This document shows, piece after piece, positions 36,441-52,550 of a DNA stretch of 64,000 nucleotides. The DNA is taken from positions 1 to 64,000 of the IMG/VR virus record IMGVR_UViG_3300030503_000573; one strand, given 5' to 3'. The position numbers and the translations under genes are program-made. Every line of letters begins with the position of its first letter. The first letter of the stretch is position 1. The notes beneath the pieces are model-generated. The model did not search any database. It was not told where the DNA came from and was given only the letters and a program-made list of their open reading frames with translations. The stretch comes from a virus.

Positions 36441-36452
36441 CCAAAATACCAC

Positions 36453-36518: not shown

Positions 36519-36528
36519 GCCAGACCAG

Positions 36529-36858
36529 ATGACGAAGAGCCAGCCCCAGTTCGCCTTCACGGTGCGCCGGACCACCTATGAGTTCGAGGGTCGCTACGTC
36601 TCGACCAGCACTCAGGTCGTCTCCCGCGAATACTTCTGCTCGGCGGCTGGGGCCGCGTTCGCCTGCCGCCGCGCCGGTGACCCCGGCGACACGACCGACG
36701 GTGGCGTCTGTGGCGCGATTGAGAAGCTCCAGCCCGGCATGGTCTATGACTTCCAGCTCAATCAATGGGTTCCCGGCATGGAGTGGAAGCCCTGGTACGG
36801 AGAGGCGTGGGCGGCTCGCGAGCCGGTCGCCGATCCCTTTGACGACATGCCGTTCTGA
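36529..36858 (+). CDS. Hypothetical early protein
   Basis: First ORF after P1 with TAAGGAGG RBS. Confidence 0.65.
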   Translation: MTKSQPQFAFTVRRTTYEFEGRYVSTSTQVVSREYFCSAAGAAFACRRAGDPGDTTDGGVCGAIEKLQPGMVYDFQLNQWVPGMEWKPWYGEAWAAREPVADPFDDMPF

Positions 36859-36886
36859 AGCATCAATCAGCATAAGGAGACATCAG

Positions 36887-37450
36887 ATGACCCGCACCCG
36901 CCGCCCCGCTGGCTCCCGTGCCCACCCTGTCACCACCACCCTCGGCTCGGCCTTTGAAGATGGCCGCTCCGATGTCGAGGGCCTCTACGAGGAGATGAAC
37001 GACTGGGCCTCCAACATGGAGGGCAACAGCATGGAGCACCTGCCCAAGTACGACGAGGTCACCGAGGCCCGCGACGCGCTGGAGACAGCCAACGACACCC
37101 TCGGCGGCATCGAGCCGCCAGACGCCATCGCTGACCTGGAGGTCCACTTCACGACTGACACGCGCCAGAACGCCCAGAGCCGCTCGGGCCGTATGGGGAA
37201 TGTCCTGCAGGCCCTGGGCGCGGCCAAGGACGCCGCCGAGGCCTGGATGGAGGAAAACCCTGAGCTGGAGGTCAGCGAACCAGACGAGGAATTCATCGAC
37301 GGCAACGAACCCCTGGAGGAAGAAGAGAAGGTCACCCAGGAGCAGGTCGAAGAGCGCGAGGCTGCCCGCACCGAGGTCGAAGAATTCCTCAACGAGCTGG
37401 ACAGCGCCATCAGCGAGGCCGAGGGGGTCAGCTTCCCCGGCATGTACTAG
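36887..37450 (+). CDS. Highly acidic early protein
   Basis: CATAAGGAG RBS; D/E-rich helical sequence. Confidence 0.7.
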   Translation: MTRTRRPAGSRAHPVTTTLGSAFEDGRSDVEGLYEEMNDWASNMEGNSMEHLPKYDEVTEARDALETANDTLGGIEPPDAIADLEVHFTTDTRQNAQSRSGRMGNVLQALGAAKDAAEAWMEENPELEVSEPDEEFIDGNEPLEEEEKVTQEQVEEREAARTEVEEFLNELDSAISEAEGVSFPGMY

Positions 37451-37484
37451 CCTATCCCACCCACCAGCATAAGGAGACCACCTC

Positions 37485-38174
37485 ATGACCAACACCACCT
37501 ACACCACCAAGCGGGCGGCCATAGCCGGCGCGCGCCGCGCCCTCGCCAAGGCGGGCGTCGAGAACGCCCTGAGCCAGGTCCACTTCAACGTCCACCTGCG
37601 GGAGGACAGCGACGAGTGGTACTGGGCGGCGGTGGACCTGACGCCGGCTGAGCGGAAGGCCCAGGTGACCAAGCCCTCAGGCAAGTCCTTTCCCGACGCT
37701 GACCCTGGTTCGACCAGGGAGCTGGCCGATCAGAAGGCCGCCCGCCAGTCTCGCGCGGCCAAGCAGGCCATCGCCGAGACCACGGCCAGGACGCCGCCCA
37801 CCCCGCCGCCCACCCCGCCGGTCGCTCCGGCCGAGCGCTGGCGCAAGCCCAAGCGCGCCGAGCCGTCGAAGATCGCCTACCGGCCGCGCTCGGGCTCGCA
37901 GCAGCGGGCGGCCTACGAGCTGCTCACCAGCCCGGACTACCCCGAGGGCATCGAGGCCCAGACCTTCTGCGACCTCATGAACCCGTGGGTCAAGCCTGGC
38001 GCGACGCCGTGGACCCCCGCCAACACCTGGGGCTTTCTCAACTACCTGCTCGTCAGCCAGAAGGGCTACGGCCTGAGCTTCGACGGCACCCGGTTCCGCC
38101 TGCTGGTGCCGAAGGACGAGCGCGACCCGGTCGCGCGCAAGGCCGACCCGCTGCCGCCGATGAAGGCGAAGTGA
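37485..38174 (+). CDS. Hypothetical early protein
   Basis: CATAAGGAG RBS; 229 aa. Confidence 0.7.
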   Translation: MTNTTYTTKRAAIAGARRALAKAGVENALSQVHFNVHLREDSDEWYWAAVDLTPAERKAQVTKPSGKSFPDADPGSTRELADQKAARQSRAAKQAIAETTARTPPTPPPTPPVAPAERWRKPKRAEPSKIAYRPRSGSQQRAAYELLTSPDYPEGIEAQTFCDLMNPWVKPGATPWTPANTWGFLNYLLVSQKGYGLSFDGTRFRLLVPKDERDPVARKADPLPPMKAK

Positions 38175-38383
38175 TGCGCAAGCCCACCACCCACCAGAGC
38201 TCCGTCATCGAGCTGCTCCGGCTCGGGCATGTCACGCCCGAGCCGCACGCCCCCCGCGCGGCGGTGGCCCACTACGAGGCCAACCCGGCGGCGGCCGTGT
38301 GGGTGGTCGCCCGTACCCTCAGCGGTGCCAACCTCACCGAGATGTGGCGCGTCCACCCCGACGGCCGCGCGGAGCAGTTCTGA
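38174..38383 (+). CDS. Hypothetical protein
   Basis: TGATG-coupled at both ends. Confidence 0.55.
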   Translation: MRKPTTHQSSVIELLRLGHVTPEPHAPRAAVAHYEANPAAAVWVVARTLSGANLTEMWRVHPDGRAEQF

Positions 38384-39348
38384 TGAGCATCAGCATGAGA
38401 GGCTGGACCTACGGGGCCGAGCACGAGTTCGTGGACTGGCCACGGTCGAGGCCGCTCCCTGCGGGGTGCACCGCCCTGACGAATGAGTACACCATCGTCA
38501 ACTCGACCGGGGTGGCGACCGACCCGCACCACGACCCGGCCCGGCGCACCTACGCCTGGGGCCACGAGGTCAACACCCCGCCGACCGACGACATCGGGGG
38601 CCAGGTCGGCATCATGATGGAGCTGCTGGAGGCGCTGCCCGAGGCCCGCGTCAACTACCGCTCTGAGCTCAACATCCACATCCGGGTGCCAGGCCTGCGA
38701 GACGACCTCGCGGCGCTGAAGCGCCTCGCCGACTACAACGGCCGCCACCTGAGGACCGCCGTCGAGCTGGTCGACCCCATGAGCCCCCCGGTGCGCTCCC
38801 TGGGCATGACCGACGACGAGTGGGAGGGCGCCAAGCGCAACTACGTGGTGCGCCGCAACTTCCAGCACCGGGTGCTGCCGCCCGACCGCACGGCCCGCCA
38901 GCTGGCGGCTGCCACCACCACTGAGTTCTTCGAGGCCGAGGTGCCGAAGGCGAGGGGCAACGGCCGCCCGATGTGGCACGCCCAGCCCCGGTGCGCGGTA
39001 AACCTGCGGCAGCTGCTGCAGACCGACACGGTGGAGTTCCGCCACTGGGCGGGGACGCTGAACGCCGGCTTGTTCCAGAACGCTGGGCTCTGGTGCATGT
39101 TGTACCTGCGAGGAGCCCTCTTCGATCCTGATACTGCGCCAACAGCTCTGTGGAATGGAATGGCGAGCAGCTTGTTAGAATTCCCACCCCAGCACCCCTA
39201 CGAGCACTGGAAGGAGCGTCGTTTCCGCGCCACCACCCACGACGGCTCCAACCGCCGTGACGAGATTCTACGCAACATCGCGGCCATCGAGAGCGGCGAG
39301 TTCGACGACCTGCCCGAGTCGGTCGCACCTAGGAGGCTGCCGCTGTGA
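38383..39348 (+). CDS. Putative amidoligase (COOH-NH2 ligase, glutamine synthetase-like fold)
   Basis: TYGAEHE, HEVNTPP, LNIHIR, RCAVNL, TVEFRH motifs in canonical order. Confidence 0.75.
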   Translation: MSISMRGWTYGAEHEFVDWPRSRPLPAGCTALTNEYTIVNSTGVATDPHHDPARRTYAWGHEVNTPPTDDIGGQVGIMMELLEALPEARVNYRSELNIHIRVPGLRDDLAALKRLADYNGRHLRTAVELVDPMSPPVRSLGMTDDEWEGAKRNYVVRRNFQHRVLPPDRTARQLAAATTTEFFEAEVPKARGNGRPMWHAQPRCAVNLRQLLQTDTVEFRHWAGTLNAGLFQNAGLWCMLYLRGALFDPDTAPTALWNGMASSLLEFPPQHPYEHWKERRFRATTHDGSNRRDEILRNIAAIESGEFDDLPESVAPRRLPL

Positions 39349-40193
39349 CGCGCATCGACGTAGCCGTCATCGGCGGGGGCCTGTTCGGGCGCACCATCGC
39401 GGCCGAGATGTGGGCCCAGGGACGGGAGTGTCAGGTACTCGACGACGCGCGGCCCTGGAGGGGCTCGGCCCCGGCCGCCTGCCTGATGCGGCCAAGCTGG
39501 TTCTCCAAGATGGAGAGGGGCGAGTACGTCGCCTCGATGGACCGGCTGGACCGGCTGTTCGGGGTCAAGAAGGTCAGGTTCGAGACGCCCGCAGGGCCGG
39601 CCGACCTGGACTGGGTGGACCCAGCCGTGGTGATGCGGCCGGACGCCTGTGTCATACCGGCGACGGTCACCGACATCTGGCGCGGCGAGGGCTACTGGGC
39701 GCTCAGCGTCAACACAGGACAGCCGGTCCACGCCCGCTCGGTCGTCGTGGCCACCGGCGTTTGGGTGCCGGAGCTTGTCAGGACGCCCCACAACATCACC
39801 GCCCTCGGCGGGTGGGCCGTGACCTGGGCATGGCCCTACGAGCGCCAGCAGGGCCCGAGCCGCCTGGAGCCGTGGGCTCCCTACAAGCAGCTCATCGGCT
39901 TCCAGCGGGGGGCTTGGGAGTGGTGGGCCGGCGACGGCACGGCGCTCCTCCCGGGATCGCTCACGCCAGAACGGCGCGACGCCTCCGAGAACCGCCTCCT
40001 GGCCTTCGGCAAGCGCCTTGGCCTAGCGGGTGTCGCCAGCATCACGGGCGGCCTCCGGCCGAAGGTTCCCGGGCTGCGCGCGCCGGCCCTCGTCGAGGAG
40101 GTCGCGCCCGGCCTGTGGATCGCGACCGGCGGCGCAAAGAACGGAACCCTTGGCGCGGCCTGGGCCTCGCTCCAGCTGAAGGACAGGCTCTAG
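39345..40193 (+). CDS. FAD-dependent oxidoreductase (DAO/glycine oxidase-like)
   Basis: VAVIGGGLFG dinucleotide fold, VVVATGVW, GLRP, ATGGAKNG. Confidence 0.85.
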   Translation: MTRIDVAVIGGGLFGRTIAAEMWAQGRECQVLDDARPWRGSAPAACLMRPSWFSKMERGEYVASMDRLDRLFGVKKVRFETPAGPADLDWVDPAVVMRPDACVIPATVTDIWRGEGYWALSVNTGQPVHARSVVVATGVWVPELVRTPHNITALGGWAVTWAWPYERQQGPSRLEPWAPYKQLIGFQRGAWEWWAGDGTALLPGSLTPERRDASENRLLAFGKRLGLAGVASITGGLRPKVPGLRAPALVEEVAPGLWIATGGAKNGTLGAAWASLQLKDRL

Positions 40194-40559
40194 ATGCGCT
40201 TCGTGCTCCGCTCCAAGCTCCACAACGCCACGGTCACCGAGGCGAACCTGCTGTACGTGGGCTCGATCACCATCGACGAGCACCTCATGGAGGTCGTCGG
40301 CCTGTGGCCCGGCGAGCGCGTGCTGGTGGTCTCCAACACGAGCGGGGCCCGCCTGGAGACCTACGTCATCACCGGCGACCGCTACTCCGGGGCGATCTGC
40401 ATGAACGGGGCCGCCGCCCACCTCATCTCGGCCGGCGAGCAGGTCATCATCATGGGCTTCGAGCTGGCCGAGCGGCCCATCACACCGGCCGTGGCCCTGT
40501 GCACGCCTAATAACCAGGTAGCACGCATGCTAAGCGAAATCTCAGGAGAGTTCCTATGA
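40194..40559 (+). CDS. panD: Aspartate 1-decarboxylase (pyruvoyl-dependent)
   Basis: SKLH, YVG-SITID autocleavage site, GARLETYVI, NGAAAH all intact. Confidence 0.95.
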   Translation: MRFVLRSKLHNATVTEANLLYVGSITIDEHLMEVVGLWPGERVLVVSNTSGARLETYVITGDRYSGAICMNGAAAHLISAGEQVIIMGFELAERPITPAVALCTPNNQVARMLSEISGEFL

Positions 40560-40729
40560 TCCAAGCCCTCGTCATGGCAGTGATGCTGTGCGCGCTAGTG
40601 GTGGTCACCGCCAAGGTGCTGACCCTGCTGCTGCGCCTCGTGCTGGTGCTCGCCGGCATGGCGGTGCTGGCCGTGCTCGGGGCAGCCACATTCCTCATCA
40701 CGCTCGCCGCGTCTGTTGCGAGCGCCTAG
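40556..40729 (+). CDS. Small hydrophobic membrane protein (57 aa, not in ORF track)
   Basis: AGGAG RBS, ATGA overlap with panD; almost entirely hydrophobic. Confidence 0.6.
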   Translation: MIQALVMAVMLCALVVVTAKVLTLLLRLVLVLAGMAVLAVLGAATFLITLAASVASA

Positions 40730-40779
40730 AGACCCGCGCGCGGCGGCTTCCGCGCACAGCAAGAAGGAGGACTACGACT

Positions 40780-40938
40780 ATGGACAAGATCATGAGCTAC
40801 CTGGGCGACGAAGGCGGTGCCAGCGCCGCTGAGTACGCCTTGATCCTGGCGCTGATCGCCCTGGTGATCATCGTCAGCGTCACGACCCTCGGCACCAACA
40901 TCAACGGTGTCTTCTCGCACGCTGCCAAGTCTATCTGA
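40780..40938 (+). CDS. flp: Flp/Fap (Tad) type IV prepilin
   Basis: AAGGAGG RBS; 52 aa MDKIMSYLGDEGG-ASAAEYALILALIALVIIVSVTTLGTNINGVF with G-1, E+5, Y+6. Confidence 0.9.
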   Translation: MDKIMSYLGDEGGASAAEYALILALIALVIIVSVTTLGTNINGVFSHAAKSI

Positions 40939-40982
40939 CGCGGCGCGGCGGCCCGGGGTGGTGAGCCCCGGGCGACTACCTT

Positions 40983-41543
40983 GTGAATCATATGGAGTTC
41001 TCAGACGTGGCCAGGGCGATGTTCTACGACAGCTATCAGGACGAAGTGAGGGACTGGATGCTCCAGACCTTCCCGCCCGAGGTCTGCCAGGACCGGGTCG
41101 AACGCGCCGACCGCCTGCTGGAGGAGGTCTTCGAGCTGCTCCAGAGCGGAGGCTACGACCCGGCGCGGGTCGCAATGATCCGCGACTACGTCTGGGGCCG
41201 ACCGGTCGGCGAGCCGGCGCAGGAGGTGGGTGGTGTCGCTGTGACCCTCGCGGCCTACTGCTGGGTGCACGGCCTTGACTACGAGGCTGCTGCCAGGGCC
41301 GAGGTGGCCCGGGTGTGGACCATGATTGATGTCATCCGCAGGAAGCAGGCGGCCAAGCCCAAGGGGAGCCCGCTGCCGGTCGCGGTGGACCACCCGGCGG
41401 AGGCTCCTGTATCCAGAACAGCTGTCATGATATTTGGACAGCCTAAGCTGTACTATGAGGTCTACGAATGCGATCCTCGTGATGGCGCGATGTGGACTGA
41501 TGAGCGCGTCACGTCATGGTTTAGAGGCGAGCCGCTGCCGTGA
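40983..41543 (+). CDS. MazG-like NTP pyrophosphohydrolase
   Basis: RLLEEVFEL...QEVGGV all-alpha NTP-PPase-like pattern. Confidence 0.6.
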   Translation: MNHMEFSDVARAMFYDSYQDEVRDWMLQTFPPEVCQDRVERADRLLEEVFELLQSGGYDPARVAMIRDYVWGRPVGEPAQEVGGVAVTLAAYCWVHGLDYEAAARAEVARVWTMIDVIRRKQAAKPKGSPLPVAVDHPAEAPVSRTAVMIFGQPKLYYEVYECDPRDGAMWTDERVTSWFRGEPLP

Positions 41544-41935
41544 CCAGAACCGTCCCCCGCACCTCGCCCCCGCTCGACCTGGAGCTGGTCGCGCGCACCC
41601 TGCGCACCGCCACCTACCGGGCCTGGATGCTGAGCCTGACCAACAACCGCATGGCCGTGCGCTCCTACGAGGAGATGAAGGCCCCGGAGGTCGGGCAGAT
41701 GGTCGTCGAGCTGACGACCATCTGGGCGCGTGCGTTCGACCTCAAGGGCGTCGGGGAGCTGGTGCTCGTAGCCCAGGAGAGGATCGACCTCGGCGGTGAG
41801 CCCTGGGACGAGGTCTTCCAAGGCACCCCGTGCCCGACCGAGCCAGTCTACTACGTCAAGAACCTAGACGGCACCGTGACCCGCTGGACGAACTGCCAGC
41901 TGCTAGCCTGCCCAGCAGACCTGGGGCTAGTCTAG
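41540..41935 (+). CDS. Hypothetical protein
   Basis: GTGA-coupled 131 aa ORF. Confidence 0.6.
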   Translation: MTRTVPRTSPPLDLELVARTLRTATYRAWMLSLTNNRMAVRSYEEMKAPEVGQMVVELTTIWARAFDLKGVGELVLVAQERIDLGGEPWDEVFQGTPCPTEPVYYVKNLDGTVTRWTNCQLLACPADLGLV

Positions 41936-41940
41936 CACCC

Positions 41941-42261
41941 ATGACCCGCCCCATCCACTTCACCCCGGCCGACGTCGAGCGCTTCCTGAGCTTCGTCGTG
42001 CCCGCGCTTGACGGCTGCCACCACTGGGCAGGTGGCACGAGCTGCGGTGGCCACAACACGAGCGAATACGGCTCGTTCTGGGTGGACGGGCGCGGGGTGC
42101 GTGCCCACATCTTCGCCGCCGTCGCGCTGGGCGACGGGCACGCGCCGGGCAACCACGTCGACCACCTGTGCGTGACGTCGCTGTGCGTCAACCCAGCCCA
42201 CCTGGAGGACGTGCCCCCGCCGGTGAACCAGGCGCGGAAGCTGGAGCGGCGGAGGCGTTGA
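41941..42261 (+). CDS. HNH endonuclease
   Basis: GCHHWAG, YGSF, RAH, VDHLC...CVNPAHLE. Confidence 0.85.
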   Translation: MTRPIHFTPADVERFLSFVVPALDGCHHWAGGTSCGGHNTSEYGSFWVDGRGVRAHIFAAVALGDGHAPGNHVDHLCVTSLCVNPAHLEDVPPPVNQARKLERRRR

Positions 42262-42578
42262 TGGCCCACCCCTCCACCCTCATGGCCATCGCGGCTGGCG
42301 ACTACCGCCTGTTCTGGGTGCGGGTTGGCCCGACCTCGGCGCACACCGCGTGCTGCTGCCCGGCCCACGCCCTCGACAAGCTGGTGATGATCGGCGTGCT
42401 GCGCAGCGACGGCCGCCACCCGGCCGAGGGCGGCGAGATTGACGGCCGGTTCGTGCACTGGTTCTTGGCCCACCCAGAAGACCTCGACCGGCCGATGGGG
42501 CAGGGCGAGGTCGACTTCATCCAGGCCGCGTGCGAGAGCGCGGGGCTGAGCAGCATCGTGAGCGAGGCGAGGAACTAG
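42261..42578 (+). CDS. Hypothetical protein
   Basis: TGATG-coupled with GGAGG RBS. Confidence 0.55.
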   Translation: MAHPSTLMAIAAGDYRLFWVRVGPTSAHTACCCPAHALDKLVMIGVLRSDGRHPAEGGEIDGRFVHWFLAHPEDLDRPMGQGEVDFIQAACESAGLSSIVSEARN

Positions 42579-42580
42579 CA

Positions 42581-43477
42581 ATGATGGAAGTCGAAGACTT
42601 TGGCCGCCTGCTGATCGAGACCGGCGACCTCGACCCGGTGTACGTGGCGCTGAACCGCATGCGTTGGCCGGGCGGGTTCGCCCAGAGGGACCGCTGGCTG
42701 CAGGCGTACTGGTGCTGCTACCACGTGGGGGCCAGCTGCTGGCTCGCCGAGGTTCCGGACTTCTGGGGCTTCATGCGGCTGGCCGCCGTCAACGAGCGGC
42801 CGTCTCCCCTGGGCGGCCGGTGGCCCAGGGCGGCCGAGCGCCGCCACTGGCGGGGTCAGGCAGCCATAGACAGCGTCAACGACCTGGAGCGCCGCTACGG
42901 CAACCCGAACGCCCCTGACAAGAGCTGGTCCATGGTGCGGTACTGCGGCTTCGACGTCGAGCGGGAGGACATCCACCAGCCCAAGGTCCCCCTCGCGCTG
43001 ATTGAGGCCCGCGTCAAGGAGCACACCGGCTTCGGGCCCTGGATCGCCTTCAAGGTCGCCGACATGCTGGAGCGGTGCTGCGGGGTGCCGGTCGAGTTCG
43101 GCAACGCGCCGATGTTCTACGACAGCCCGAAGAAGGCCGCGCTGGCGCTGTTCAAGATGAGGGCCGGCCTGCCAGCCGCTGCCAAGGTCAAGGACGAGCT
43201 GGGGGCCATCTCCCAGGTCTCAGCCCACCTGCTGCGCACCATAGGCGACCTGGAGGCCCCCGGCGGGGGCCGGGCGTGCGGGCTGCCCGAGGTCGAGACC
43301 GTGCTGTGCAAGTGGGGCTCCCACCTCAGCGGCCACTATCCGCCGGGGAAGGACATCGCCGAGATTTATGAGGGGCTGTCCGAGTGGGAGACAGTCAGCC
43401 CGCTGGCCAGGAAGTTCCTCGCGGCGATGCCTGTTGACCAAGCAAAGCTGCTAGGTGCGGCCCCGGCTGCGGCCTAG
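42581..43477 (+). CDS. Amino acid:DNA transferase (aGPT-Pplase clade 2-like)
   Basis: TGDLDPVY, AYWCCYH, ERRHWRG, FGPWIAFKVADM, EVETVLCKW, YPPGKD motifs; beside kinases and TS homolog. Confidence 0.8.
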   Translation: MMEVEDFGRLLIETGDLDPVYVALNRMRWPGGFAQRDRWLQAYWCCYHVGASCWLAEVPDFWGFMRLAAVNERPSPLGGRWPRAAERRHWRGQAAIDSVNDLERRYGNPNAPDKSWSMVRYCGFDVEREDIHQPKVPLALIEARVKEHTGFGPWIAFKVADMLERCCGVPVEFGNAPMFYDSPKKAALALFKMRAGLPAAAKVKDELGAISQVSAHLLRTIGDLEAPGGGRACGLPEVETVLCKWGSHLSGHYPPGKDIAEIYEGLSEWETVSPLARKFLAAMPVDQAKLLGAAPAAA

Positions 43478-43503
43478 GTTAACCACTGACATAAGGAGCT
43501 CAC

Positions 43504-44142
43504 ATGGGCTGGGTACTCAACATACGCGGGACCAACGGGTCAGGGAAGAGCCACCTCGTGCGCTCGATGCTGCCGACGCCTGAGTATAGGCCAAATGTTA
43601 ACCTAGCCCGCTACGACTCACCGACGAAGCGCTACCCTGACCGCAAGAATGTAGTACCAGGGTATGTACTCAGTGAGCGAGACCTCGGACTGTTTGGTGT
43701 TGTTGGCTCCTACGAGACCCCGACAGGCGGCCTCGACGGAGTGCCAACATTTGCGGCTCAGATCGCGAGCTGTGCTCAGCTGCTCAACGACAACGAGTGC
43801 TGTACAGTCCTCGCCGAGGGCGTGCTGGCCTCCACGGTCTTCGGAGCCTGGGGCGCGTTCGCCGATGACCTCTCGCGGTTATCTCGACACCGTATGGCGT
43901 TCCTCTACATGAGCACGCCGGTTGACGTATGCCTGATGCGCATCACCGAGCGCCAGATTAAGGCCGGTCGCATCAGGGATATCAACGAGCAGCTGGTGCG
44001 CGACAAGGTGCGGGCCGTCGCCGCGACCCGCGAGCGGGCGCTGGCCGCCGGCCACGCGGTGTTCGACCTGCCGTTCGGGCTGGAGCGCGTGGCGCTGACT
44101 GGCATCATGCGCGGCGACATGGAGAGCTACCGTGGGAACTAG
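43504..44142 (+). CDS. 5-hmdU DNA kinase-like P-loop kinase 1
   Basis: NIRGTNGSGKS, VGSY...GGLD, LAEG. Confidence 0.8.
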   Translation: MGWVLNIRGTNGSGKSHLVRSMLPTPEYRPNVNLARYDSPTKRYPDRKNVVPGYVLSERDLGLFGVVGSYETPTGGLDGVPTFAAQIASCAQLLNDNECCTVLAEGVLASTVFGAWGAFADDLSRLSRHRMAFLYMSTPVDVCLMRITERQIKAGRIRDINEQLVRDKVRAVAATRERALAAGHAVFDLPFGLERVALTGIMRGDMESYRGN

Positions 44143-44761
44143 GCTGATAATCAACCTGCGTGGGCCCAACGGGGCCGGCAAGACGACGGTGGCCCGGGGG
44201 TTCCTGGAGCACAAGACTATCGACCTGGAGCCATACAGATACATCAACTCTGAGGGTCGAAGCAGAAGCTGGCCTATAGCCCAATGCAAGGCGCCAGGCC
44301 TCCAGCTGCCTATCTACGTGCTTGGACGCTATGATGTCCAGCAGGGCGGCTGTGACACGGAGAAGGACATGGACGCCATAGAGCGCTGCGTCCAGTGGGC
44401 CGTGGACAACCTCACCGATGGTCACATCTTCTTCGAGGGCTTCGTGGTCTCCAAGAGCGGCGGCCGGTGGCTGGAGTTCGCCGGGCGCAACGAGCGGGCT
44501 GGGAAGGGTCGCTACGTCTGGGCCTTCCTGAGGCCCAACCTCAACGAGCTGGAGGCACGCATCAAGGGCCGCAATGGCGGCAAGGAGGTCAAGCTTCCAC
44601 TCCTTGACAACACGATGCGCACAGTTGACCTCATTCGCAACAAGGCAAAGGCCCTCGTCACCGACCGCCGGTTCCTGGTGGACCTGGACTGGCAGCTCAG
44701 CGCGCCCATGGTTACCGAGCAGCTGATCCTACGCTTACAGCAGCTGGAGGCCGTCCGATGA
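44132..44761 (+). CDS. 5-hmdU DNA kinase-like P-loop kinase 2
   Basis: NLRGPNGAGKT, LGRY...GGCD, FFEG. Confidence 0.8.
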   Translation: MGTRLIINLRGPNGAGKTTVARGFLEHKTIDLEPYRYINSEGRSRSWPIAQCKAPGLQLPIYVLGRYDVQQGGCDTEKDMDAIERCVQWAVDNLTDGHIFFEGFVVSKSGGRWLEFAGRNERAGKGRYVWAFLRPNLNELEARIKGRNGGKEVKLPLLDNTMRTVDLIRNKAKALVTDRRFLVDLDWQLSAPMVTEQLILRLQQLEAVR

Positions 44762-45384
44762 CTACCCGAGTCATCGTCAACATCAGGGGTGCCAACGCCA
44801 GCGGCAAGACGACGCTGATGCGCCGCGTGATTGGGTCTGCGCCATACGTAGACCTAGGCCAGTTTCCAGACGCCCAGGGGAAGATGGGCTTCGTCCAAGG
44901 CCACCAGTTCTCGCTGGAGGGGTTCGAGCTGCCCTTCCTGGTCATCGGCCGGTACGATGCGTCCAAGTACTCGGGGTGCGACAAGATCAAGAGCGCTGAC
45001 CAGATCGAGGGGGTGTTGCGCTGGGCCATAGACGGCGGCTTCGCCGGCCACGTCCTCTTCGAGGGCTTCCGGGTCTCCAAGAGCTGGGCCCGCTTCGCCG
45101 CCGTGCGCAACTGGTGCGTGAGCAACCATCATGCCAGCTGGGTGTGGGCCTTCCTGCGCGCCGAGCCCGAGCTGATCTTTGAGCGCTCGGCCGCCCGGCG
45201 CGAGGCCGACGCGAGGCCCATTGACAAGGAGGAGCTCGCGGCAGTGTGCCGGGTGATGGCCTCCACCTGGCGCAAGGCCAAGGTGGCGATGCCACGAGAC
45301 TGCCTGGACCTGGACGCCTCGCAGCCGACCGAGGTGCTGTACGCGCAGCTGCTCGGGCGCATCAAGATGCTGGAGTCGGCGTGA
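44758..45384 (+). CDS. 5-hmdU DNA kinase-like P-loop kinase 3
   Basis: NIRGANASGKT, IGRY...SGCD, LFEG. Confidence 0.8.
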   Translation: MTTRVIVNIRGANASGKTTLMRRVIGSAPYVDLGQFPDAQGKMGFVQGHQFSLEGFELPFLVIGRYDASKYSGCDKIKSADQIEGVLRWAIDGGFAGHVLFEGFRVSKSWARFAAVRNWCVSNHHASWVWAFLRAEPELIFERSAARREADARPIDKEELAAVCRVMASTWRKAKVAMPRDCLDLDASQPTEVLYAQLLGRIKMLESA

Positions 45385-46373
45385 TGGACGTCGGCCCGCT
45401 GGTCGCCTGGGTGAATGAGCGCGAGGCGGTGCGGCTTAGGAAGGCTATCATTGCTGCTGGCGTTGACAGCTGGGGCCTAGAAGCCGGCTCCCTCACTCGT
45501 GATGTCTGGGGCGAGCATCCCAGAGACTACTGGCAGCTGGGTCACCTCACCGACGACCCCATCCTTCAGCAGTTCAAGTTCTGCAACGTCCGCCGCGAAG
45601 ACGACCGGGTGACTGTCTGGGTTCGCGAGCACATCAGGGAGCCGTATGCCGACCAGCAGCACCTGTGGCTCATGCTGGCCATCGCGAGGACGATCAACTG
45701 GCCCCCGGCGCTGCTGGAGCTGATCAGGGGCGGAGCCGAGGGCGTGTCCTCGTTCCCCAACATGCAGGACTTCGATCCGCGCTGCATGGCCCAGGTGCTG
45801 GAGGCGCGGCGGGCGCGTGGCGAGAAGGTCGAGACCGGCGCGTACATGATCAGGGCGGAGAGCCGGAAGGACAAGCCCTGGTACAGCTGGTCGAAGCAGC
45901 GGTATATCGCAGAGATCGTGATTGGCCATCTCTGGTACATGCGGGCCAGCTGGAAGCATGACTTTGAAAAGAAGAAGCTGACTACGCTGGAGCGCACCTG
46001 GGAAATTTTCCAGGAATATGACGGCTGGGGCCCATTCATGGCCTTCCAGGTCATCGTCGACCTCGCACACACCCGCTACCTGCGAGACGCGCCCGACCGC
46101 TCTAGCTGGGCCGCGCTCGGGCCCGGCTCGCGCCGGGGGCTGAACCGGCTGTACGGCCGGCCGGTGACAACTGGGCTGACGCAGGCCCAGGGTCTGGAGG
46201 AGATGCGAGAGGTCCAGGCGGCGGTGAACGCGCCGGGCGTGCTGGCGCCGTGGGTCGAGAAGATCGCGCTGAGCGACATACAGAACTGCTTGTGCGAGAC
46301 GGATAAATACCTCAGGGTAAGGAACGGCGAGGGTCGGCCGAGGGCCCTCTACAAGCCATGGAGTGGGTGGTGA
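45384..46373 (+). CDS. aGPT-Pplase clade 1-like DNA modification protein
   Basis: ERE, TDDPILQQFKFCNVRREDDRVT, GPFMAFQ...D, GPGSRRGL, IQNCLCETDKY. Confidence 0.85.
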   Translation: MDVGPLVAWVNEREAVRLRKAIIAAGVDSWGLEAGSLTRDVWGEHPRDYWQLGHLTDDPILQQFKFCNVRREDDRVTVWVREHIREPYADQQHLWLMLAIARTINWPPALLELIRGGAEGVSSFPNMQDFDPRCMAQVLEARRARGEKVETGAYMIRAESRKDKPWYSWSKQRYIAEIVIGHLWYMRASWKHDFEKKKLTTLERTWEIFQEYDGWGPFMAFQVIVDLAHTRYLRDAPDRSSWAALGPGSRRGLNRLYGRPVTTGLTQAQGLEEMREVQAAVNAPGVLAPWVEKIALSDIQNCLCETDKYLRVRNGEGRPRALYKPWSGW

Positions 46374-46597
46374 GCATGATCAATCGGATCAACCAGCTTA
46401 TGGTGCGAACCCGATGCTTTGCTGGCCTCCACCCTCGGGTAATCTCTGGTCGAGGGATGTGGGGCGACGCTGGCACCTGCCTGGTATGCGGAGCCGACGG
46501 CTATGGCCTCAAGGGCCTTCACAACACAGACCTCGCCGATGCAAGCGAAGATGACCGAGAGCGCCTGAGGGTGCTGGACGAGCAGAGGACGGCCTGA
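46370..46597 (+). CDS. Hypothetical Cys/His small protein
   Basis: CFAGLH...CLVCG; coupled to neighbours. Confidence 0.5.
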   Translation: MSMINRINQLMVRTRCFAGLHPRVISGRGMWGDAGTCLVCGADGYGLKGLHNTDLADASEDDRERLRVLDEQRTA

Positions 46598-47685
46598 TGC
46601 ACACCATCCACGCCCGCAACGTCAACGACGCCCTACACGCCGGCCTGATGCTGGTCCACAGCCACGGCATCCCGGAGACGAGCCGCAATGGTCCGGTCCT
46701 CCGCGTGCCCGAGCCGGTGGCCACCGTGTACGCCCGGCCGTGCGAGCGCGTGCTGATCCAGCCGTGGCGCGACGCCAACCCGTTCTTCCACCTCGTCGAG
46801 GCCTTCTGGATGCTCGCCGGGCGCGACGACCTGCGGCAGCTGACGCCCTACGTGTCCCGCATGAGGGAGTTCTCCGACGACGGCGGGGTGACGCAGCCCG
46901 GGGCGTACGGGAAGCGGTGGCGCGATCACGTCAAGAGCCCTTTCCTGGGCGGCATCGACCAGCTCAGCTGGGTAGCCGGGAGGCTTAGAGAGGACCCCAG
47001 CGACCGGCGCTGCGTCATTCAGATGTGGGACGCCAGCGTGGACATCCACAAAGCGTCCATCGGTGGCAACGACGCCCCGTGCAACCTCACGGCCACGCCC
47101 TACGTCGCGGCCGGCGCGCTCCACCTCGCGGTGTTCTGCCGCTCCAATGACATCATCTGGGGCGCATACGGCGCCAACGCGGTGCACTTCTCGGTGCTGC
47201 TGGAGTACCTGGCGGCGCGGGTTGGGGTGCCGGTCGGGACATACACGCAGGTGAGCATCAACTACCATGCCTACCTCAGCACCTTCCCCAAGGTCATGCC
47301 GGTCGAGGCGGCGCAGCCGTACAGCGTGAGCGGATTTGACGCCCTTCAACCCATACCTATGTTTTCAGAATGGTTGGTCGGCGGCGAAGATCGGGAATGC
47401 GAGCGCATCTTCCAGGAGGACCTCAGGGTCTTCTTCGAGGAGGGCCCCTTCGCCTACGCCACCGCCGGGCGCATTCCCTTCATGCGCCGGGTGCTGGTGC
47501 CTATGTGCCTGGCCCACCAGCACTGGCGCACGAAGAAGGGCGAGGACCGCTACCTCGGCGCGCTGGAGATTCTGCGCAGCTGCGCCGCGCCGGACTGGCG
47601 CCGGGCCGCCGAGGAGTGGGTTGGCCGCCGGTACGACAGGTGGAAGCTCGCCGCAGACGACGGAGCCCACGATGCTGAGGGATAG
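46597..47685 (+). CDS. Thymidylate synthase homolog, probable dUMP hydroxymethylase
   Basis: SRNG, RDANPFFH, PCN catalytic Cys, RSNDIIWG...NAVHFS (Asn = dUMP specificity), NYHAY, C-terminal DWRRAAEEW; context. Confidence 0.85.
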   Translation: MHTIHARNVNDALHAGLMLVHSHGIPETSRNGPVLRVPEPVATVYARPCERVLIQPWRDANPFFHLVEAFWMLAGRDDLRQLTPYVSRMREFSDDGGVTQPGAYGKRWRDHVKSPFLGGIDQLSWVAGRLREDPSDRRCVIQMWDASVDIHKASIGGNDAPCNLTATPYVAAGALHLAVFCRSNDIIWGAYGANAVHFSVLLEYLAARVGVPVGTYTQVSINYHAYLSTFPKVMPVEAAQPYSVSGFDALQPIPMFSEWLVGGEDRECERIFQEDLRVFFEEGPFAYATAGRIPFMRRVLVPMCLAHQHWRTKKGEDRYLGALEILRSCAAPDWRRAAEEWVGRRYDRWKLAADDGAHDAEG

Positions 47686-47842
47686 CGAAGCCCACCAGGA
47701 GTTCGTGCGTCGCCACGCCATCTTCATGGAGCAGATCAAGCGCGCCGAGCGCCGGCGCTACCTGAGCCGGATGTTCTTTGGCGGGCTGATCTGGGGCCTG
47801 GGCTTCGCCCTCGGCCTCGCTGCGGCCCGCATTCTTCACTAG
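47672..47842 (+). CDS. Small membrane protein
   Basis: C-terminal TM helix; GGAG RBS. Confidence 0.45.
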   Translation: MLRDSEAHQEFVRRHAIFMEQIKRAERRRYLSRMFFGGLIWGLGFALGLAAARILH

Positions 47843-47854
47843 GGACCATAGGAA

Positions 47855-48454
47855 ATGCCCAAGCTCTTTGACCGCGTCAGGCTCGCCCGCGAGGGGGCGG
47901 CCGTCGAGCGCGCCCACCAGCACCCCCACCTGCAGCGCTACTCGGTCGGGCACCACTCGCTCGATGTGGTCACGCTGGTGGTGCTGTGCTGGAAGCACGA
48001 CCACGGCGGCGAGCTCCCCCGGGCCGAGCTGCTCGTGGCAGCGGCCTTTCACGACGTTGCCGAGCGCGTCACCGGCGACCTGCCAAGTCCCATCAAGGAC
48101 CGCTGCCGCGATGCCCTGGGCGAGATCGAGAAGGAGGTGGACCGCTACCTCGGGGTGGACGTCGGGCTGCGGGAGGACGAGCAGTGGTACCTCAAGAGCT
48201 GCGACAAGCTGGAGCTGTACCTGTGGGCCCACGAGGAGGCCAGCCGGGGCAATTGCCGCTTCCTGGGCTGGTGCCGGGTGTACGAGCAGAACTGGCAGTA
48301 TGAGCCGCCGCCTGAGTCCGTCAAGCGCATCGTCGAGGCTGTCGACCACGCGGGCCACATACCTGTTCTGCCGGGCGACCCGACCGACATGATCAGGCTC
48401 GGGCTCGCCAACATGGCCGCCGAGCAGCGCTCGGGAGTGCGCACCGATGGATGA
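47855..48454 (+). CDS. HD-domain 5'-deoxynucleotidase (YfbR-like)
   Basis: YSVGHHS, FHDVAE..TGDLPSPIK, CDKLE. Confidence 0.85.
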   Translation: MPKLFDRVRLAREGAAVERAHQHPHLQRYSVGHHSLDVVTLVVLCWKHDHGGELPRAELLVAAAFHDVAERVTGDLPSPIKDRCRDALGEIEKEVDRYLGVDVGLREDEQWYLKSCDKLELYLWAHEEASRGNCRFLGWCRVYEQNWQYEPPPESVKRIVEAVDHAGHIPVLPGDPTDMIRLGLANMAAEQRSGVRTDG

Positions 48455-48842
48455 GCGCATCGAGGCGCGGCAGTACGGGGGCGACCACTACCGAGGCACG
48501 ATCAAGCACTGGGACATCTGCGAGAGGTGGGACGTGCCCTACCTGGAGGGCAACGCCACCAAGTACATCGAACGCTACGACCGCAAGGGCTCGCCCGTTG
48601 CCGACCTCACGAAGGCCGGCTCCTACCTGGCCAAGGCCATCGAGACGCGCGGCCGGCCCAGGCGCATAGTGCCGGAGGCCGAGGTGCTGCGCTGGGCGAT
48701 AGGCGCACAGCTGGATGGCTGGAAGCTCCACATGATGCGCCTGATCCTGTGTGAGGGCCGAGACGAGAGCCTGAGTGTGGCGCTCGACTTTCTCCACGGT
48801 CGGCTGGCCATGCTGGAGCGAGAGCGGCCAGCCGAAGCATGA
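48447..48842 (+). CDS. DUF3310 / T7 gp1.7-like nucleotide kinase family protein
   Basis: QYGGDHY, YLEGNATKY..R..RKG...DL.KA..YL. Confidence 0.75.
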   Translation: MDERIEARQYGGDHYRGTIKHWDICERWDVPYLEGNATKYIERYDRKGSPVADLTKAGSYLAKAIETRGRPRRIVPEAEVLRWAIGAQLDGWKLHMMRLILCEGRDESLSVALDFLHGRLAMLERERPAEA

Positions 48843-49174
48843 GCCCCCACTCCCCCCAGCAGTGCGCCCTTGACGTCATCGCGGCCTTCGGCGGCGCGAC
48901 GCTGGCCCAGGTCATGGGCCGCACCCGGGGGCCCGCCCCGGTGTGCCTGCGGCGGTGGCTCGCGCAGTGGGTGTGGTGGCGCATCAGGGGCGGCGACGGC
49001 GTGAACCTGCTGAGCGGCCCGAGCTACGCCGCGACCGGCCGGGCCTGGGGCCGGCACCACGTCACCATCATGGGGGCGAGGGCGAAGACCCGCGACTACC
49101 TCGCGGGGCACCCCGAGGTGGCCGCTGAGGTCGAGCGCATAATCAGCTGGAAGACGGGGCAGCGCCCTGCATGA
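48839..49174 (+). CDS. Stand-alone DnaA domain IV-like HTH protein
   Basis: VMGRTR...RRW...SYAATGRAWGRHHVTIM resembles SLPEIG..FGRDHTTV. Confidence 0.6.
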   Translation: MSPHSPQQCALDVIAAFGGATLAQVMGRTRGPAPVCLRRWLAQWVWWRIRGGDGVNLLSGPSYAATGRAWGRHHVTIMGARAKTRDYLAGHPEVAAEVERIISWKTGQRPA

Positions 49175-51120
49175 GCCAGCTCCAGGCCACGCTGTTCCCC
49201 CCGGAGAGCGCCTGGAGGCCGCCCCGCCTGGGCCACCTGCCCCAGGACTGGTCGATGTTCCCCCGCATCGGCCTCGACACCGAGACCGAGGACCGCTACC
49301 TCAAGACCCTCGGGCCCGGGGTGAGGCGCGGCGGCCGCATCGTCGGGGTCTCACTGTGCTTCCCGGGACTCCGCAGCTGGTACCTACCCATCGGCCACGC
49401 GGGCGGCGACAACATGGAGGACGCGGACCGGGTGCTGGAGTACCTCCGCGCCTGCGCGAAGGGCTACACCGGCGAGGTCGTCGGGGCGAACCTCAGCTAC
49501 GATGTCGACTACCTCGCCGAGGCCGGCGTGGACCTGACCCACGCCCAGCTGCTGGACATCCAGGTGGCCGAACCCCTCATCGACGAGCTGCAGTGGAGCT
49601 ACTCGCTGGAGAGCATCGCGCAGCGACACGGGCTGGGTGGCAAGGAAGAGGGGCTGCTGAGGGAGGCTGCCGAAGCATACCGCGTCGACCCCAAGGCTGG
49701 CCTCCACCTGCTGCCGGCCCGCTACGTCGGTCCCTACGCTGAGGAGGATGCGGCCCTCCCGCTCCGCATACTTGAGCGGCAGGAGGCCATCATCGAGGAG
49801 CGCGGCCTGGGCCCCATCTGGGCCCTGGAGAAGCGGGTCACCCCGGCCCTCATCGCCATGCGCCGCCGGGGCGTCGCCATCGACCACGACGCGCTGTCCA
49901 AGGTCGAGCGGTACTCACTGGCCGAGGAGAGCAAGGCCTGGGCCACGCTGCAGCGCGAGACCGGCGTAGCCGTGAAGGTCGGTGACGCCATGAAGGCCGA
50001 CGTGGTAGCAGCGGCCATAAGGCCGGCCGGGCTGATCCCGCCGAAGACCGCGACCGGCAAGCCGTCCATCACCAAGCAGTGGCTCGACGCCCTCAAGCAC
50101 CCGGTCGCCGAGGCCGTGCGCCGGGCCCGCAAGATGAGCCAGCTGCGCACCACCTTCGTCGCCTCGGTGCGCGAGCACGAGGTGCGGGGCCGCGTTCACT
50201 GCACGTTCAACCAGGTCGTCACCTCAGACGAGGAGGACAAGACCGTCGGTGGGCGCTATGGCCGCCTGAGCTGCTGCGACCCAAACCTCCAGCAGCAGCC
50301 GGCGCGAGACCCGGAGATCGGCCCGATGTGGCGCTCCGTGTACGTGCCGGACCACGGGTGCGAGTGGGGCTCGCTCGACTACTCCCAGCAGGAGCCGGGC
50401 CTCGCCATCCACTTCGCGGTCGCGGCCGGCCCGGACCTCATAGGCGAGCGGGGCTACGAGAGCGCCGTGGCGGCCATGGAGGCCAAGTGGCGCGACCCGA
50501 GCCTGGACTACCACACCAACTTCACCGCCATGGTGCACGGCGAGTACGTCTTCGGCCTGGACAAGAAGGCCCTCAAGCTGCTGCGCGATCCGTGCAAGAA
50601 CATCTTCCTCGGCATCTGCTACGGCGAGGGCGGCCCCAAGCTGTGCCGCGACCTGGGCTACCCCACGCAGATCATCGAGGACCACCACGGCCGCAAGCGC
50701 GAGGTCGCGGGCCCAGAGGGGCAGGCGCTGCTCGACCTCGTGGATGCCCGCGTGCCGTACGTGCGGAAGATTTCAGCGGCGGTCGAGCGGGTGGCCAAGG
50801 AGCGCGGCTTCATCGTCACCGGCGGGGGCCGCCAACTCCACTTCCCGACCGACCAGTGGGGCAACTACGACTGGACCTGGAAGGCGTTCAACCGCCTCAT
50901 CCAGGGCACAGCTGCCGACCAGATGAAGACAGCGACCGCCGTGCTGCACGAGGCCGGCGTGCCCCTGCAGCTCCAGGTCCACGACGAGCTGGACCTGAGC
51001 CTGGCCGGGGGCCGGCCCGAGGGCGAGCGCTACGCCCGGGAGATGGTTGAGTGCTTCCCGCTCCGGGTGCCGGTGCGGGTCGACGTCGAGGTGGGCCCGA
51101 GCTGGGGGAAGATCGCTTGA
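49171..51120 (+). CDS. polA: DNA polymerase family A with 3'-5' exonuclease domain
   Basis: LDTET, NLSYD, YAEED; GRLSCCDPNLQQ, LDYSQQE, K...LG..YG, IQGTAAD, VHDE. Confidence 0.95.
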   Translation: MSQLQATLFPPESAWRPPRLGHLPQDWSMFPRIGLDTETEDRYLKTLGPGVRRGGRIVGVSLCFPGLRSWYLPIGHAGGDNMEDADRVLEYLRACAKGYTGEVVGANLSYDVDYLAEAGVDLTHAQLLDIQVAEPLIDELQWSYSLESIAQRHGLGGKEEGLLREAAEAYRVDPKAGLHLLPARYVGPYAEEDAALPLRILERQEAIIEERGLGPIWALEKRVTPALIAMRRRGVAIDHDALSKVERYSLAEESKAWATLQRETGVAVKVGDAMKADVVAAAIRPAGLIPPKTATGKPSITKQWLDALKHPVAEAVRRARKMSQLRTTFVASVREHEVRGRVHCTFNQVVTSDEEDKTVGGRYGRLSCCDPNLQQQPARDPEIGPMWRSVYVPDHGCEWGSLDYSQQEPGLAIHFAVAAGPDLIGERGYESAVAAMEAKWRDPSLDYHTNFTAMVHGEYVFGLDKKALKLLRDPCKNIFLGICYGEGGPKLCRDLGYPTQIIEDHHGRKREVAGPEGQALLDLVDARVPYVRKISAAVERVAKERGFIVTGGGRQLHFPTDQWGNYDWTWKAFNRLIQGTAADQMKTATAVLHEAGVPLQLQVHDELDLSLAGGRPEGERYAREMVECFPLRVPVRVDVEVGPSWGKIA

Positions 51121-51175
51121 TGCATCAGAAGCACCCACTAGCGCTGCGCCGCGCGGGCCCGCTAAGGTGGCACTC

Positions 51176-52535: not shown

Positions 52536-52550
52536 GGGGGACCGCCGGGG

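Follow-up and report, generated by a model that had tools for sequence, protein, structure and literature searches.

The first 64,000 nucleotides (positions 1-64000, termed the window below) of the virus record IMGVR_UViG_3300030503_000573, a genome of 73,083 bp with a CheckV completeness of 100% from an uncultured relative of Pseudomonas phage PaMx11, contain a gene cluster for thymidine hypermodification in which an amidoligase, a lyase that depends on flavin adenine dinucleotide (FAD), and the aspartate decarboxylase PanD are encoded in direct succession. The phage probably makes a DNA base so far undescribed, perhaps a β-alanyl amide. By sequence comparison, the core of the cluster is a member of the published hypermodification systems based on an amino acid:DNA transferase (AADT). 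Family membership and the conservation of catalytic residues are shown by the comparisons; all reactions of the route, the polarity of the ligation, and the identity of the donor are inferred.

In the favored route, a thymidylate synthase (TS)-like dUMP hydroxymethylase would cause thymine to be replaced by 5-hydroxymethyluracil during replication. After replication, three kinases (K1 to K3), acting with an HMUDK_hel protein, would phosphorylate 5-hydroxymethyldeoxyuridine (5-hmdU) in the DNA to 5-phosphomethyldeoxyuridine (5-PmdU), a glycine-type AADT would swap the phosphate for glycine to yield N-alpha-glycinylthymidine (N-alpha-GlyT), and the flavin lyase would cut the glycine N-C-alpha bond, leaving 5-aminomethyldeoxyuridine (5-NmdU). 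The amidoligase, predicted to have a glutamine synthetase/glutamate-cysteine ligase (GS/GCL) fold, would then use ATP to convert a free carboxylic acid into an acyl phosphate and join it to the DNA-borne amine. This acid would most likely be β-alanine, formed from aspartate by the PanD encoded directly after the lyase gene, and the end product would be the cationic 5-(β-alanylaminomethyl)-dU with a neutral nucleoside mass of 328.138. An earlier annotation made from the nucleotide sequence alone (the sequence-only reading) had given calculated masses of 257.10 for 5-aminomethyl-dU, 328.14 for the β-alanyl amide, and 329.12 for an N-carboxyethyl adduct, and recalculation agrees with all three. 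The genes concerned are as follows; all gene families named in the sequence-only reading were found on the plus strand.

38383-39348, plus strand: amidoligase, a divergent Amidoligase_2 of 321 amino acids (aa) with GS/GCL fold, putative ATP-dependent carboxylate-amine ligase (assigned from homologues and fold)
39345-40193, plus strand: homologue of the FAD-dependent N-alpha-glycinylthymidine lyase (NGTO) (PF01266, E 1.4e-12; phrog_16743, E 9.6e-53)
40194-40559, plus strand: PanD, pyruvoyl-dependent aspartate 1-decarboxylase (PF02261, E 1.5e-37; 128.5 bits versus a cut-off of 25)
42581-43477, plus strand: AADT (aGPT-Pplase2), glycine type (PF18724, named ADDT in Pfam, E 8.5e-16; true start at 42581)
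43504-44142, plus strand: kinase K1, the paralogue closest to M6 gp54 (PF18748, E 1.2e-7; 32-33% identical to M6 gp54)
44132-44761, plus strand: kinase K2 (PF18748, E 7.9e-8; 33% identical to K3 and 26% to K1)
44758-45384, plus strand: kinase K3 (AAA_33 only, E 3e-4, below cut-off; BLAST homology to K2 and M6 gp54)
45384-46373, plus strand: HMUDK_hel protein (PF18723, E 1.3e-40; 49% identical to M6 gp55; homologue of PaMx11 gp50)
46597-47685, plus strand: TS-family protein, presumed dUMP hydroxymethylase (PF00303, E 3.3e-18; 44% identical to PaMx11 gp51)

Predicted route to 5-aminomethyldeoxyuridine

Searches with Pfam profiles placed the AADT, the FAD enzyme, PanD, the TS homologue, K1, K2, and the HMUDK_hel protein in their families, whereas the amidoligase and K3 remained below the cut-off. 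The TS homologue, whose family had been recognized correctly in the sequence-only reading, is presumed to act as a dUMP hydroxymethylase. The three P-loop kinases of that reading were also recovered, K1 and K2 by passing the PF18748 cut-off and K3 by its homology to K2 (33% identity) and M6 gp54 (27%). All three possess a Walker A motif and share 26 to 33% identity with one another and 27 to 33% with M6 gp54. Their genes lie in tandem and overlap; related loci usually have one kinase gene, and two were found in L022 only, among the matches listed. The two aGPT-Pplase clades distinguished in the sequence-only reading were retained in part: clade 2 is the ADDT family (PF18724), but the other clade corresponds to HMUDK_hel (PF18723) of Pfam.

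The best solved relative of the AADT is YuA Pplase2 (Protein Data Bank [PDB] entry 25qc; 255 bits), and the match to PaMx11 gp46 (8z2m) reaches 207 bits; identities are 42% to PaMx11 gp46 and 45% to M6 gp51. The glycine pocket of YuA Pplase2 is formed by D24, E96, K159, K248, Y257, and D262, and M6 gp51 is 97% identical to the YuA protein (PMC13458397). As read off an alignment to M6 gp51, the window AADT retains all six pocket residues together with the catalytic cysteine C247 and with E243 and T244. PaMx11 gp46 has the same set, as do 13 of the 14 AADTs that were sampled at related loci. This signature is informative because two substitutions, at the equivalents of K248 and Y257, suffice to switch the donor (PMC13458397).

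In PaMx11, the pathway to 5-acetylaminomethyldeoxyuridine (5-AcNmdU) comprises gp46 as AADT, gp47 as flavin lyase, gp48 as acetyltransferase, and gp49 as kinase (PMC8989533; structures in PMC11472151). The lyase homologue of the window is 41% identical to gp47, with 198 bits to PDB entry 8z2o ("flavin-dependent lyase"). It keeps seven of the nine residues listed in PMC11472151 (W51, F52, Y180, Q182, R210, R242, and K268), the other two being changed (K202 to L and Y244 to K); for R242 of gp47, binding of the glycine carboxylate was proposed in the same paper. With both enzymes alike and key residues kept, the intermediates up to 5-NmdU would be expected to be the same as in PaMx11. The conversion of glycinyl-T to 5-aminomethyl-dU by the FAD enzyme, as put forward in the sequence-only reading, is therefore backed by homology to solved and assayed enzymes and by the kept residues, and judging from these comparisons 5-NmdU is likely formed as an intermediate, in the order 5-hmdU, 5-PmdU, N-alpha-GlyT, 5-NmdU.

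Beyond 5-NmdU, the cluster departs from the known pathways. The window lacks the gp48 acetyltransferase and has the amidoligase and PanD in its place; it has three kinases, unlike PaMx11 with one, and its tailoring genes are moved upstream, with six other genes between them and the AADT gene. Pseudomonas phages M6 and YuA produce 5-aminoethyldeoxyuridine (5-NedU) by means of a glycine AADT, a radical S-adenosylmethionine (rSAM) isomerase, and a pyridoxal phosphate (PLP)-dependent decarboxylase. The window resembles them in its AADT (45% identity to gp51), HMUDK_hel protein (49% to gp55), and K1 (33% to gp54), but has no rSAM or PLP homologue, whereas seven other ligase loci carry both. Specifically, PF00583 (GNAT) and PF04055 (rSAM) had no match in the 73-kb genome, with controls matching in 14 of 14 genomes, and tblastn searches of the genome gave no match with PaMx11 gp48 (best E, 0.67) or with M6 gp52 and gp53. 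The absence of GNAT, rSAM, and PLP genes described in the sequence-only reading thus agrees with the searches made; for GNAT and PLP these were limited to PF00583, gp48, and gp52/gp53, other GNAT and PLP families of Pfam being left unsearched.

Identity and peculiarities of the amidoligase

The start codon proposed for the amidoligase gene in the sequence-only reading, ATG 38383, holds. The protein's own match to PF12224 lies below the cut-off (E 0.13; 12.5 bits versus 22) and covers a C-terminal stretch only. Homologues were found in 168 protein clusters at E ≤1e-3, the closest being P0001, P0002, and P0004 (47 to 51% identity); of the 56 that were aligned, 45 match PF12224, the best with an E value of 3.8e-10. 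An AlphaFold2 model built on the homologue alignment had a mean predicted local distance difference test (pLDDT) score of 89. When this model was compared by VIA-align, ranks 1 to 19 were all GS, GCL, YbdK-type, PafA, or Dop structures with Z scores of 10.5 to 6.4, and unrelated folds began next after rank 19, at Z 5.6. Foldseek hits, with E values of 1e-3 or poorer, all belonged to one superfamily, and sequence searches of the PDB with either the single sequence or a profile returned chance-level rows only. Because the homologues match PF12224 and the modeled fold is that of GS/GCL, we assign the window ligase, via homologues and fold, to Amidoligase_2 with a predicted GS/GCL fold; its own Pfam score would be insufficient.

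The invariant columns of the family (E41, E43, E90, H127, E246, and R248 in a 349-aa numbering) are kept in the window protein and presumably form the metal/ATP site, as in GS and GCL. Of 85 columns with a conservation of 85% or more across 55 homologues, 13 are changed in the protein. Among these deviations (321-aa numbering), G61H lies next to E62, and N95E and H97N next to the conserved histidine H99, a glutamate and a histidine that we take to be catalytic; others are R153N and R156V, at two arginines, S160F, and H161Q. The protein forms the longest basal branch of its clade (length 1.21 versus a median of 0.38), with identities of at most 47%.

A natural fusion of an amidoligase with a 5-hmdU kinase is present in a JGI metagenome (P0060, 525 aa). 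Its residues 1 to 294 are an amidoligase 43% identical to that of the window, and residues 323 to 475 form a domain of the 5-hmdU DNA kinase type with 28% identity to K1 (E 1e-15), which ties the ligase further to DNA-level chemistry. Longer, fused ligase variants were also sought and none turned up, which is weak evidence.

Gene neighborhoods of the ligase and direction of ligation

The best 80 of 131 confirmed IMG/VR stretches with a ligase gene were scanned with the window proteins and with the M6 proteins. A flavin-lyase homologue was present in 21 of the 80 loci and in phage Simon (PQ683277), the usual order being AADT, lyase, ligase, kinase, HMUDK_hel, and TS. M6-type PLP and rSAM genes occurred together in 7 of the 80 loci, and the PLP gene alone in 1 more; the PaMx11 acetyltransferase gp48 was found in none of the 80. 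The sequence-only reading had proposed to test whether amidoligase, FAD enzyme, and panD co-occur with the AADT in other phages: ligase, lyase, and AADT do occur together elsewhere, but PanD does not, being absent from all 80 loci and from phage Simon. That reading had also considered the tailoring set unfamiliar. Flavin oxidoreductases and amidoligase Pfam matches had, however, already been reported from metavirome contigs with kinase and AADT genes, with no function assigned (Lee et al. 2021, PMC8989533), and the window shares the AADT/lyase/ligase/kinase module with those contigs; only PanD is new.

A quick maximum-likelihood IQ-TREE analysis of 82 ligases separated two clades (99% support in the SH-like approximate likelihood ratio test [SH-aLRT]), one of 37 rows, to which the window belongs, and one of 45 rows. 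The 37-row clade comprises 22 lyase contexts, 8 PLP/rSAM contexts, one AADT-only locus, and five rows in which the query proteins matched no lyase, PLP/rSAM gene, or AADT, and the lyase and PLP/rSAM contexts are interleaved within it. Three of the five context-less rows are contig ends that still carry kinase and TS genes. The remaining two, L003 and L016, are complete phages of ~110 kb with terminal repeats and have no ADDT match. In L003 (9234-12277) the gene order is QueF, a small open reading frame (ORF), amidoligase, a low-molecular-weight (LMW) phosphatase, and a QueE-like rSAM gene, and in L016 (8883-10903) the QueF match lies shortly upstream of the ligase gene, with QueC located elsewhere in both genomes. 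QueF makes preQ1, i.e., 7-aminomethyl-7-deazaguanine. PF01702 (TGT/DpdA) had no match in either genome, although a divergent DpdA may escape this model. The arrangement suggests an undescribed N-acylated derivative of preQ1 or of its DNA form, dPreQ1. Derivatization at the nitrogen of dPreQ1 is known from fdPreQ1, formed by DpdN, and mdPreQ1, formed by DpdM (bioRxiv 10.1101/2023.04.13.536721). As there, an aminomethyl group on a DNA base would be capped in the two QueF phages; the published enzymes, however, are a formyltransferase and a methyltransferase, and the word "ligase" appears nowhere in the text of that preprint.

The 45-row clade was characterized by the Pfam matches of one representative, L048, which are, in gene order, Tet_JBP, GATase_6, ligase, LMWPc, ADDT, and a P-loop kinase. 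TET/JBP clusters were noted in PMC8989533, and a ligase-less neighborhood was described in PMC13229309. Those with a glutamine amidotransferase (GATase), amidoligase, LMW phosphatase, AADT, and kinase, from T4-like phages, share with the window the ligase family (as a sister clade) and the kinase/AADT chemistry. They differ in that 5-hydroxymethyluracil arises by oxidation in the DNA, in that a GATase is present and flavin lyase and PanD are absent, and in an AADT pocket that is not of the glycine type: in ten loci of this clade, the catalytic Cys of the AADTs is retained, whereas E96, K159, K248, and D262 are missing.

The most constant neighbor of the ligase is the LMW phosphatase (PF01451), found beside it in 16 of 28 AADT+ligase loci, e.g., L004 (9547-10104) and L001 (12869-13387), and also in the TET/JBP locus L048 (10978-11397) and the QueF locus L003 (10909-11358) examined. 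It might remove leftover 5-PmdU phosphate or hydrolyze the acyl phosphate. In contrast to these loci, a profile search of the window's whole genome found no LMW phosphatase, and the window ligase is the outlier of its clade. When 13 accessory families that recur in related loci, the LMW phosphatase among them, were searched for by profile, none matched a gene of the cluster; across the whole genome, the only hits were a uracil-DNA glycosylase (UDG)-like ORF at ~32.3 kb and a single marginal row. Pfam families numbered 50 in 64 accessory ORFs of related loci, and no donor-supply enzyme is among the 25 listed.

Since 5-NmdU, 5-NedU, and preQ1 each carry a primary amine and no carboxylate, the DNA- or base-borne partner of the ligase would be the amine and the free partner a carboxylic acid. 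The lyase, M6-type PLP+rSAM, and QueF contexts, and the lack of gp48 from all 80 loci, thereby back the acylation of 5-aminomethyl-dU envisaged in the sequence-only reading, and on the strength of these neighborhoods we consider it plausible that the ligase caps 5-NmdU by N-acylation.

PanD and the acyl donor

The panD gene named in the sequence-only reading is genuine and intact. The protein gives 89 bits to PDB entry 2c45, and its whole catalytic core aligns to PanD of E. coli and M. tuberculosis, with G23-S24, K8, H10, Y21, R53, T56, Y57, and N71 aligned to the corresponding PanD residues. We take G23-S24 to be the self-cleavage site and the other seven to be catalytic or aspartate-binding residues. 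Among bacterial proteins, those most similar to it come from Alphaproteobacteria (Bradyrhizobium, 75% identity; Asticcacaulis/Caulobacteraceae, 69 to 71%). With core, self-cleavage site, and residues retained and bacterial PanD so close, the enzyme most likely makes free β-alanine. Both junctions of the trio are as the sequence-only reading had described them: the lyase start overlaps the amidoligase stop (GTGA, 39345-39348), and the lyase stop abuts the panD start (TAG|ATG, 40191-40196). The first base of panD thus directly follows the lyase stop codon, in the slot occupied by the acetyltransferase gene gp48 in PaMx11. Among 50,697 phage records, PanD was found in 15, most of them unannotated or non-phage-like (bacterial-looking).

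The slot and the rarity of PanD, the divergence of the ligase, and the lack of an LMW phosphatase were counted in favor of a link between PanD and the ligase, and a supply gene would be sensible because, with 23,502 A:T pairs, each genome copy would call for ~10^4 donor molecules even if modified only in part. On this basis we tentatively propose that the acyl group is β-alanyl, supplied by PanD, and that the product is 5-(β-alanylaminomethyl)-dU. Since the co-occurrence does not extend to PanD, this donor is read from a single genome.

A number of observations weigh against β-alanine, several of which speak for a common host acid, e.g., glutamate through its γ-carboxyl or another amino acid, that would be ligated to 5-NmdU in the same way, as it would be in the relatives lacking PanD, with PanD as an unrelated auxiliary gene for coenzyme A supply. 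PanD is absent from the related ligase loci, which manage without it in 80 of 80 cases, and from both QueF phages. Solved enzymes of the GS/GCL fold, which are the closest folds to the ligase model, are known to activate glutamate rather than β-alanine. No ADDT/AADT or ligase was found in five other PanD-bearing phage records (three IMG/VR contigs and the cultured Achromobacter phage 2-1 and Rhodococcus phage Jace), with the positive control working, so that PanD can be an ordinary auxiliary gene. Its 69 to 75% identity to alphaproteobacterial housekeeping PanD is what a host gene taken up recently would be expected to show. Furthermore, the coupled gene run carries a membrane peptide directly downstream of PanD, followed by a Flp pilin gene, i.e., unrelated cargo, and co-transcription is weak evidence because 18 kb may be one transcription unit (see below). 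Despite these points, we regard a host-acid donor as rather unlikely: PanD abuts the lyase stop in the acetyltransferase slot of PaMx11, the chance landing of a rarely phage-borne gene beside one of two tailoring genes would be improbable in a genome of about 100 genes, and the ligase is atypical at conserved positions.

The adjacency of the TET/JBP-clade ligase to a class II glutamine amidotransferase, which could supply ammonia, also counts against β-alanine as acyl donor, as it fits the amidation of a DNA-borne carboxylate. In the window, the ligase would accordingly activate the carboxylate of N-alpha-GlyT and add ammonia, β-alanine, or a polyamine, alongside the lyase or in competition with it; with β-alanine, a glycyl-β-alanine side chain of mass 386.144 would result, an isomer of γ-glutamyl-5-NmdU. 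A precedent exists in CmoY of phage S-B43, an asparagine-synthetase-like, AMP-forming enzyme that amidates 5-carboxymethylcytosine in DNA, with the carboxylate on the DNA and glycine as the free partner (PMC12783734). Judged from the genes alone, the window would likewise have an ATP-dependent amide bond formed on a modified DNA base, but its ligase is GS/GCL-like and the DNA-borne partner probably the amine. Moreover, the two enzymes would be competitors for a single substrate, R242 of the lyase, the residue proposed to bind the free glycine carboxylate (PMC11472151), is retained, and the M6-type and QueF contexts of the same ligase clade leave the base without a carboxylate. As the TET/JBP-clade AADTs lack both carboxylate-binding lysines, a tethered carboxylate may be missing there as well, and a β-alanine amide would retain a negative charge. 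We therefore hold this direction of ligation to be improbable. A direct transfer of β-alanine (or aspartate) by the AADT to 5-PmdU, which the sequence-only reading had offered as an alternative, would give the N-carboxyethyl adduct of mass 329.122. Although PanD lies in the same gene run and AADT donors vary between clusters (PMC13458397), such a transfer is disfavored by the intact glycine pocket, whose six residues are kept as in the glycine-using PaMx11 gp46 and M6 gp51; two substitutions at pocket positions were enough for a switch (PMC13458397), and the flavin lyase would simply strip the adduct; it appears very improbable. About equally remote, or slightly more so, is the idea that the ligase attaches aspartate via its β-carboxyl and PanD decarboxylates the DNA-tethered residue. 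The end product would be the identical β-alanyl amide, and decarboxylation on DNA, by PLP enzymes, is established for M6 and ViI (PMC8989533). This PanD, however, is 69 to 75% identical to housekeeping enzymes, shows no added DNA-binding feature, and keeps R53, which presumably binds the free β-carboxylate of aspartate.

We thus return to β-alanine from PanD as the preferred donor. More speculatively still, the ligase family may be a general amine-capping enzyme of phage DNA that aminoacylates base-tethered primary amines from three or more independent routes (5-NmdU, 5-NedU, dPreQ1, and perhaps an ammonia-derived 5-NmdU in the TET/JBP clusters), and that was retuned to β-alanine in this phage upon capture of panD from the host.

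Genome setting and neighboring genes

The genome has a GC content of 67.8% and 23,502 A:T pairs, and plus-strand genes with high third-position GC content (GC3) prevail from ~36.5 kb onward. A nucleotide search with the cluster against the 50,697 phage records found no nucleotide-level relative. Other features of the region are as follows.

32313-32819, plus strand: UDG-like ORF (E 9e-21 to a profile of a UDG-superfamily accessory protein from 4 related hypermodification loci)
37485-38174, plus strand: ORF of 229 aa without assigned function, first of six coupled genes (GC3 0.94)
38174-38383, plus strand: ORF of 69 aa without assigned function, coupled to the amidoligase gene by an ATGA overlap (no Pfam match)
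40556-40729, plus strand: hydrophobic membrane peptide of 57 aa, its start overlapping the PanD stop (no meaningful Pfam match)
40780-40938, plus strand: Flp/Fap-type pilin of 52 aa (PF04964, E 4.5e-13), with its own ribosome-binding site
40983-41543, plus strand: protein of 186 aa (phrog_14118, E 1e-51; phrog_8593, E 1e-43)
41941-42261, plus strand: ORF of 106 aa with a weak His-Me finger/HNH match (PF05551, E 2e-4, below cut-off)
47855-48454, plus strand: HD-domain YfbR-like deoxynucleotidase (PF12917, E 6.3e-13; 41% identical to PaMx11 gp52)
48447-48842, plus strand: DUF3310 gene, a conserved neighbor of the cluster

The amidoligase/FAD/PanD trio belongs to a longer run, 37485-40729, whose six genes are translationally coupled and in which the stop of the first ORF overlaps the next start (TGATG). 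A role in modification is improbable for the 57-aa peptide gene that ends the run. Between PanD and the AADT stand six genes that look unrelated: those of the 57-aa peptide and the Flp pilin, one for a phage protein of wide distribution, and three small ORFs, among them the one with the weak His-Me finger match. The ORFs starting at 37485, 38174, 41540, 42261, and 46358 belong to no Pfam or PHROG family, and atlas look-ups of ORFs 41540 and 42168 gave nothing usable. The 186-aa protein has tblastn relatives in 51 phage records from many hosts, one of which bears the annotation nucleoside deoxyribosyltransferase. The protein may act in nucleotide metabolism and is not specific to hypermodifying phages. 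GIY-YIG genes stand between AADT and lyase in 5 related loci, and the changed gene order of the window may be due to homing endonucleases.

Downstream of the kinases, the order TS homologue, HD, DUF3310, DNA polymerase A, dCTP-deaminase-like, and primase is as in PaMx11 and the unannotated phage Simon, with protein identities of 30 to 50%; in PaMx11, too, the block follows the kinase. The genes of the core route are syntenic with M6 as well. The sequence-only reading had extended the modification cluster to 48842. The HD and DUF3310 genes at the end of this range are conserved neighbors of the cluster.

A promoter-like cassette consisting of a TTGACT-type element, a GC-rich stretch, and the ribosome-binding site ATCATAAGGAG is present in three plus-strand copies (36440-36533, 55177-55269, and 58637-58714), which probably mark off transcription units. 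The modification cluster sits between the first and second copies, and their spacing, from 36440 to 55177, suggests a single transcription unit of 18 kb.

An alphaproteobacterial host is indicated by the Flp pilin, the 68% GC content, and the Caulobacteraceae/Bradyrhizobium-type PanD. Low GC content characterizes the three IMG/VR contigs that encode a close PanD; two of them are classed as proviruses, and one is a linear fragment. The panD genes of the cultured phages (Achromobacter phage 2-1, L088, 5989-6384; Rhodococcus phage Jace, L089, 5001-5426) lie in replication or DNA-metabolism modules, one next to the DNA polymerase gene and the other next to two genes, for a ParB-like and an "ATP binding protein."

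Implications

Thymidine hypermodifications shield phage DNA from restriction enzymes and other nucleases, and to our knowledge only a handful of their final structures have been established. Amidoligase-bearing clusters are numerous (131 IMG/VR stretches; 168 protein clusters). In open-access papers and bioRxiv, we found no assignment of the ligase product, no link of PanD or β-alanine to phage DNA, and neither the QueF association nor the atypical ligase. Among the loci examined, a candidate-donor gene beside the ligase occurs in this genome only, and because it does so here, the cluster offers a concrete and cheap hypothesis for reconstitution in vitro. If the proposal is correct, 5-(β-alanylaminomethyl)uracil would be a DNA base described nowhere, for which a PanD from an alphaproteobacterial host supplies ~10^4 molecules of β-alanine per genome copy. 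The link of the ligase to three amine-producing routes would then represent a new modular tailoring step, and an enzyme that writes amide bonds onto DNA would be useful in DNA labeling chemistry.

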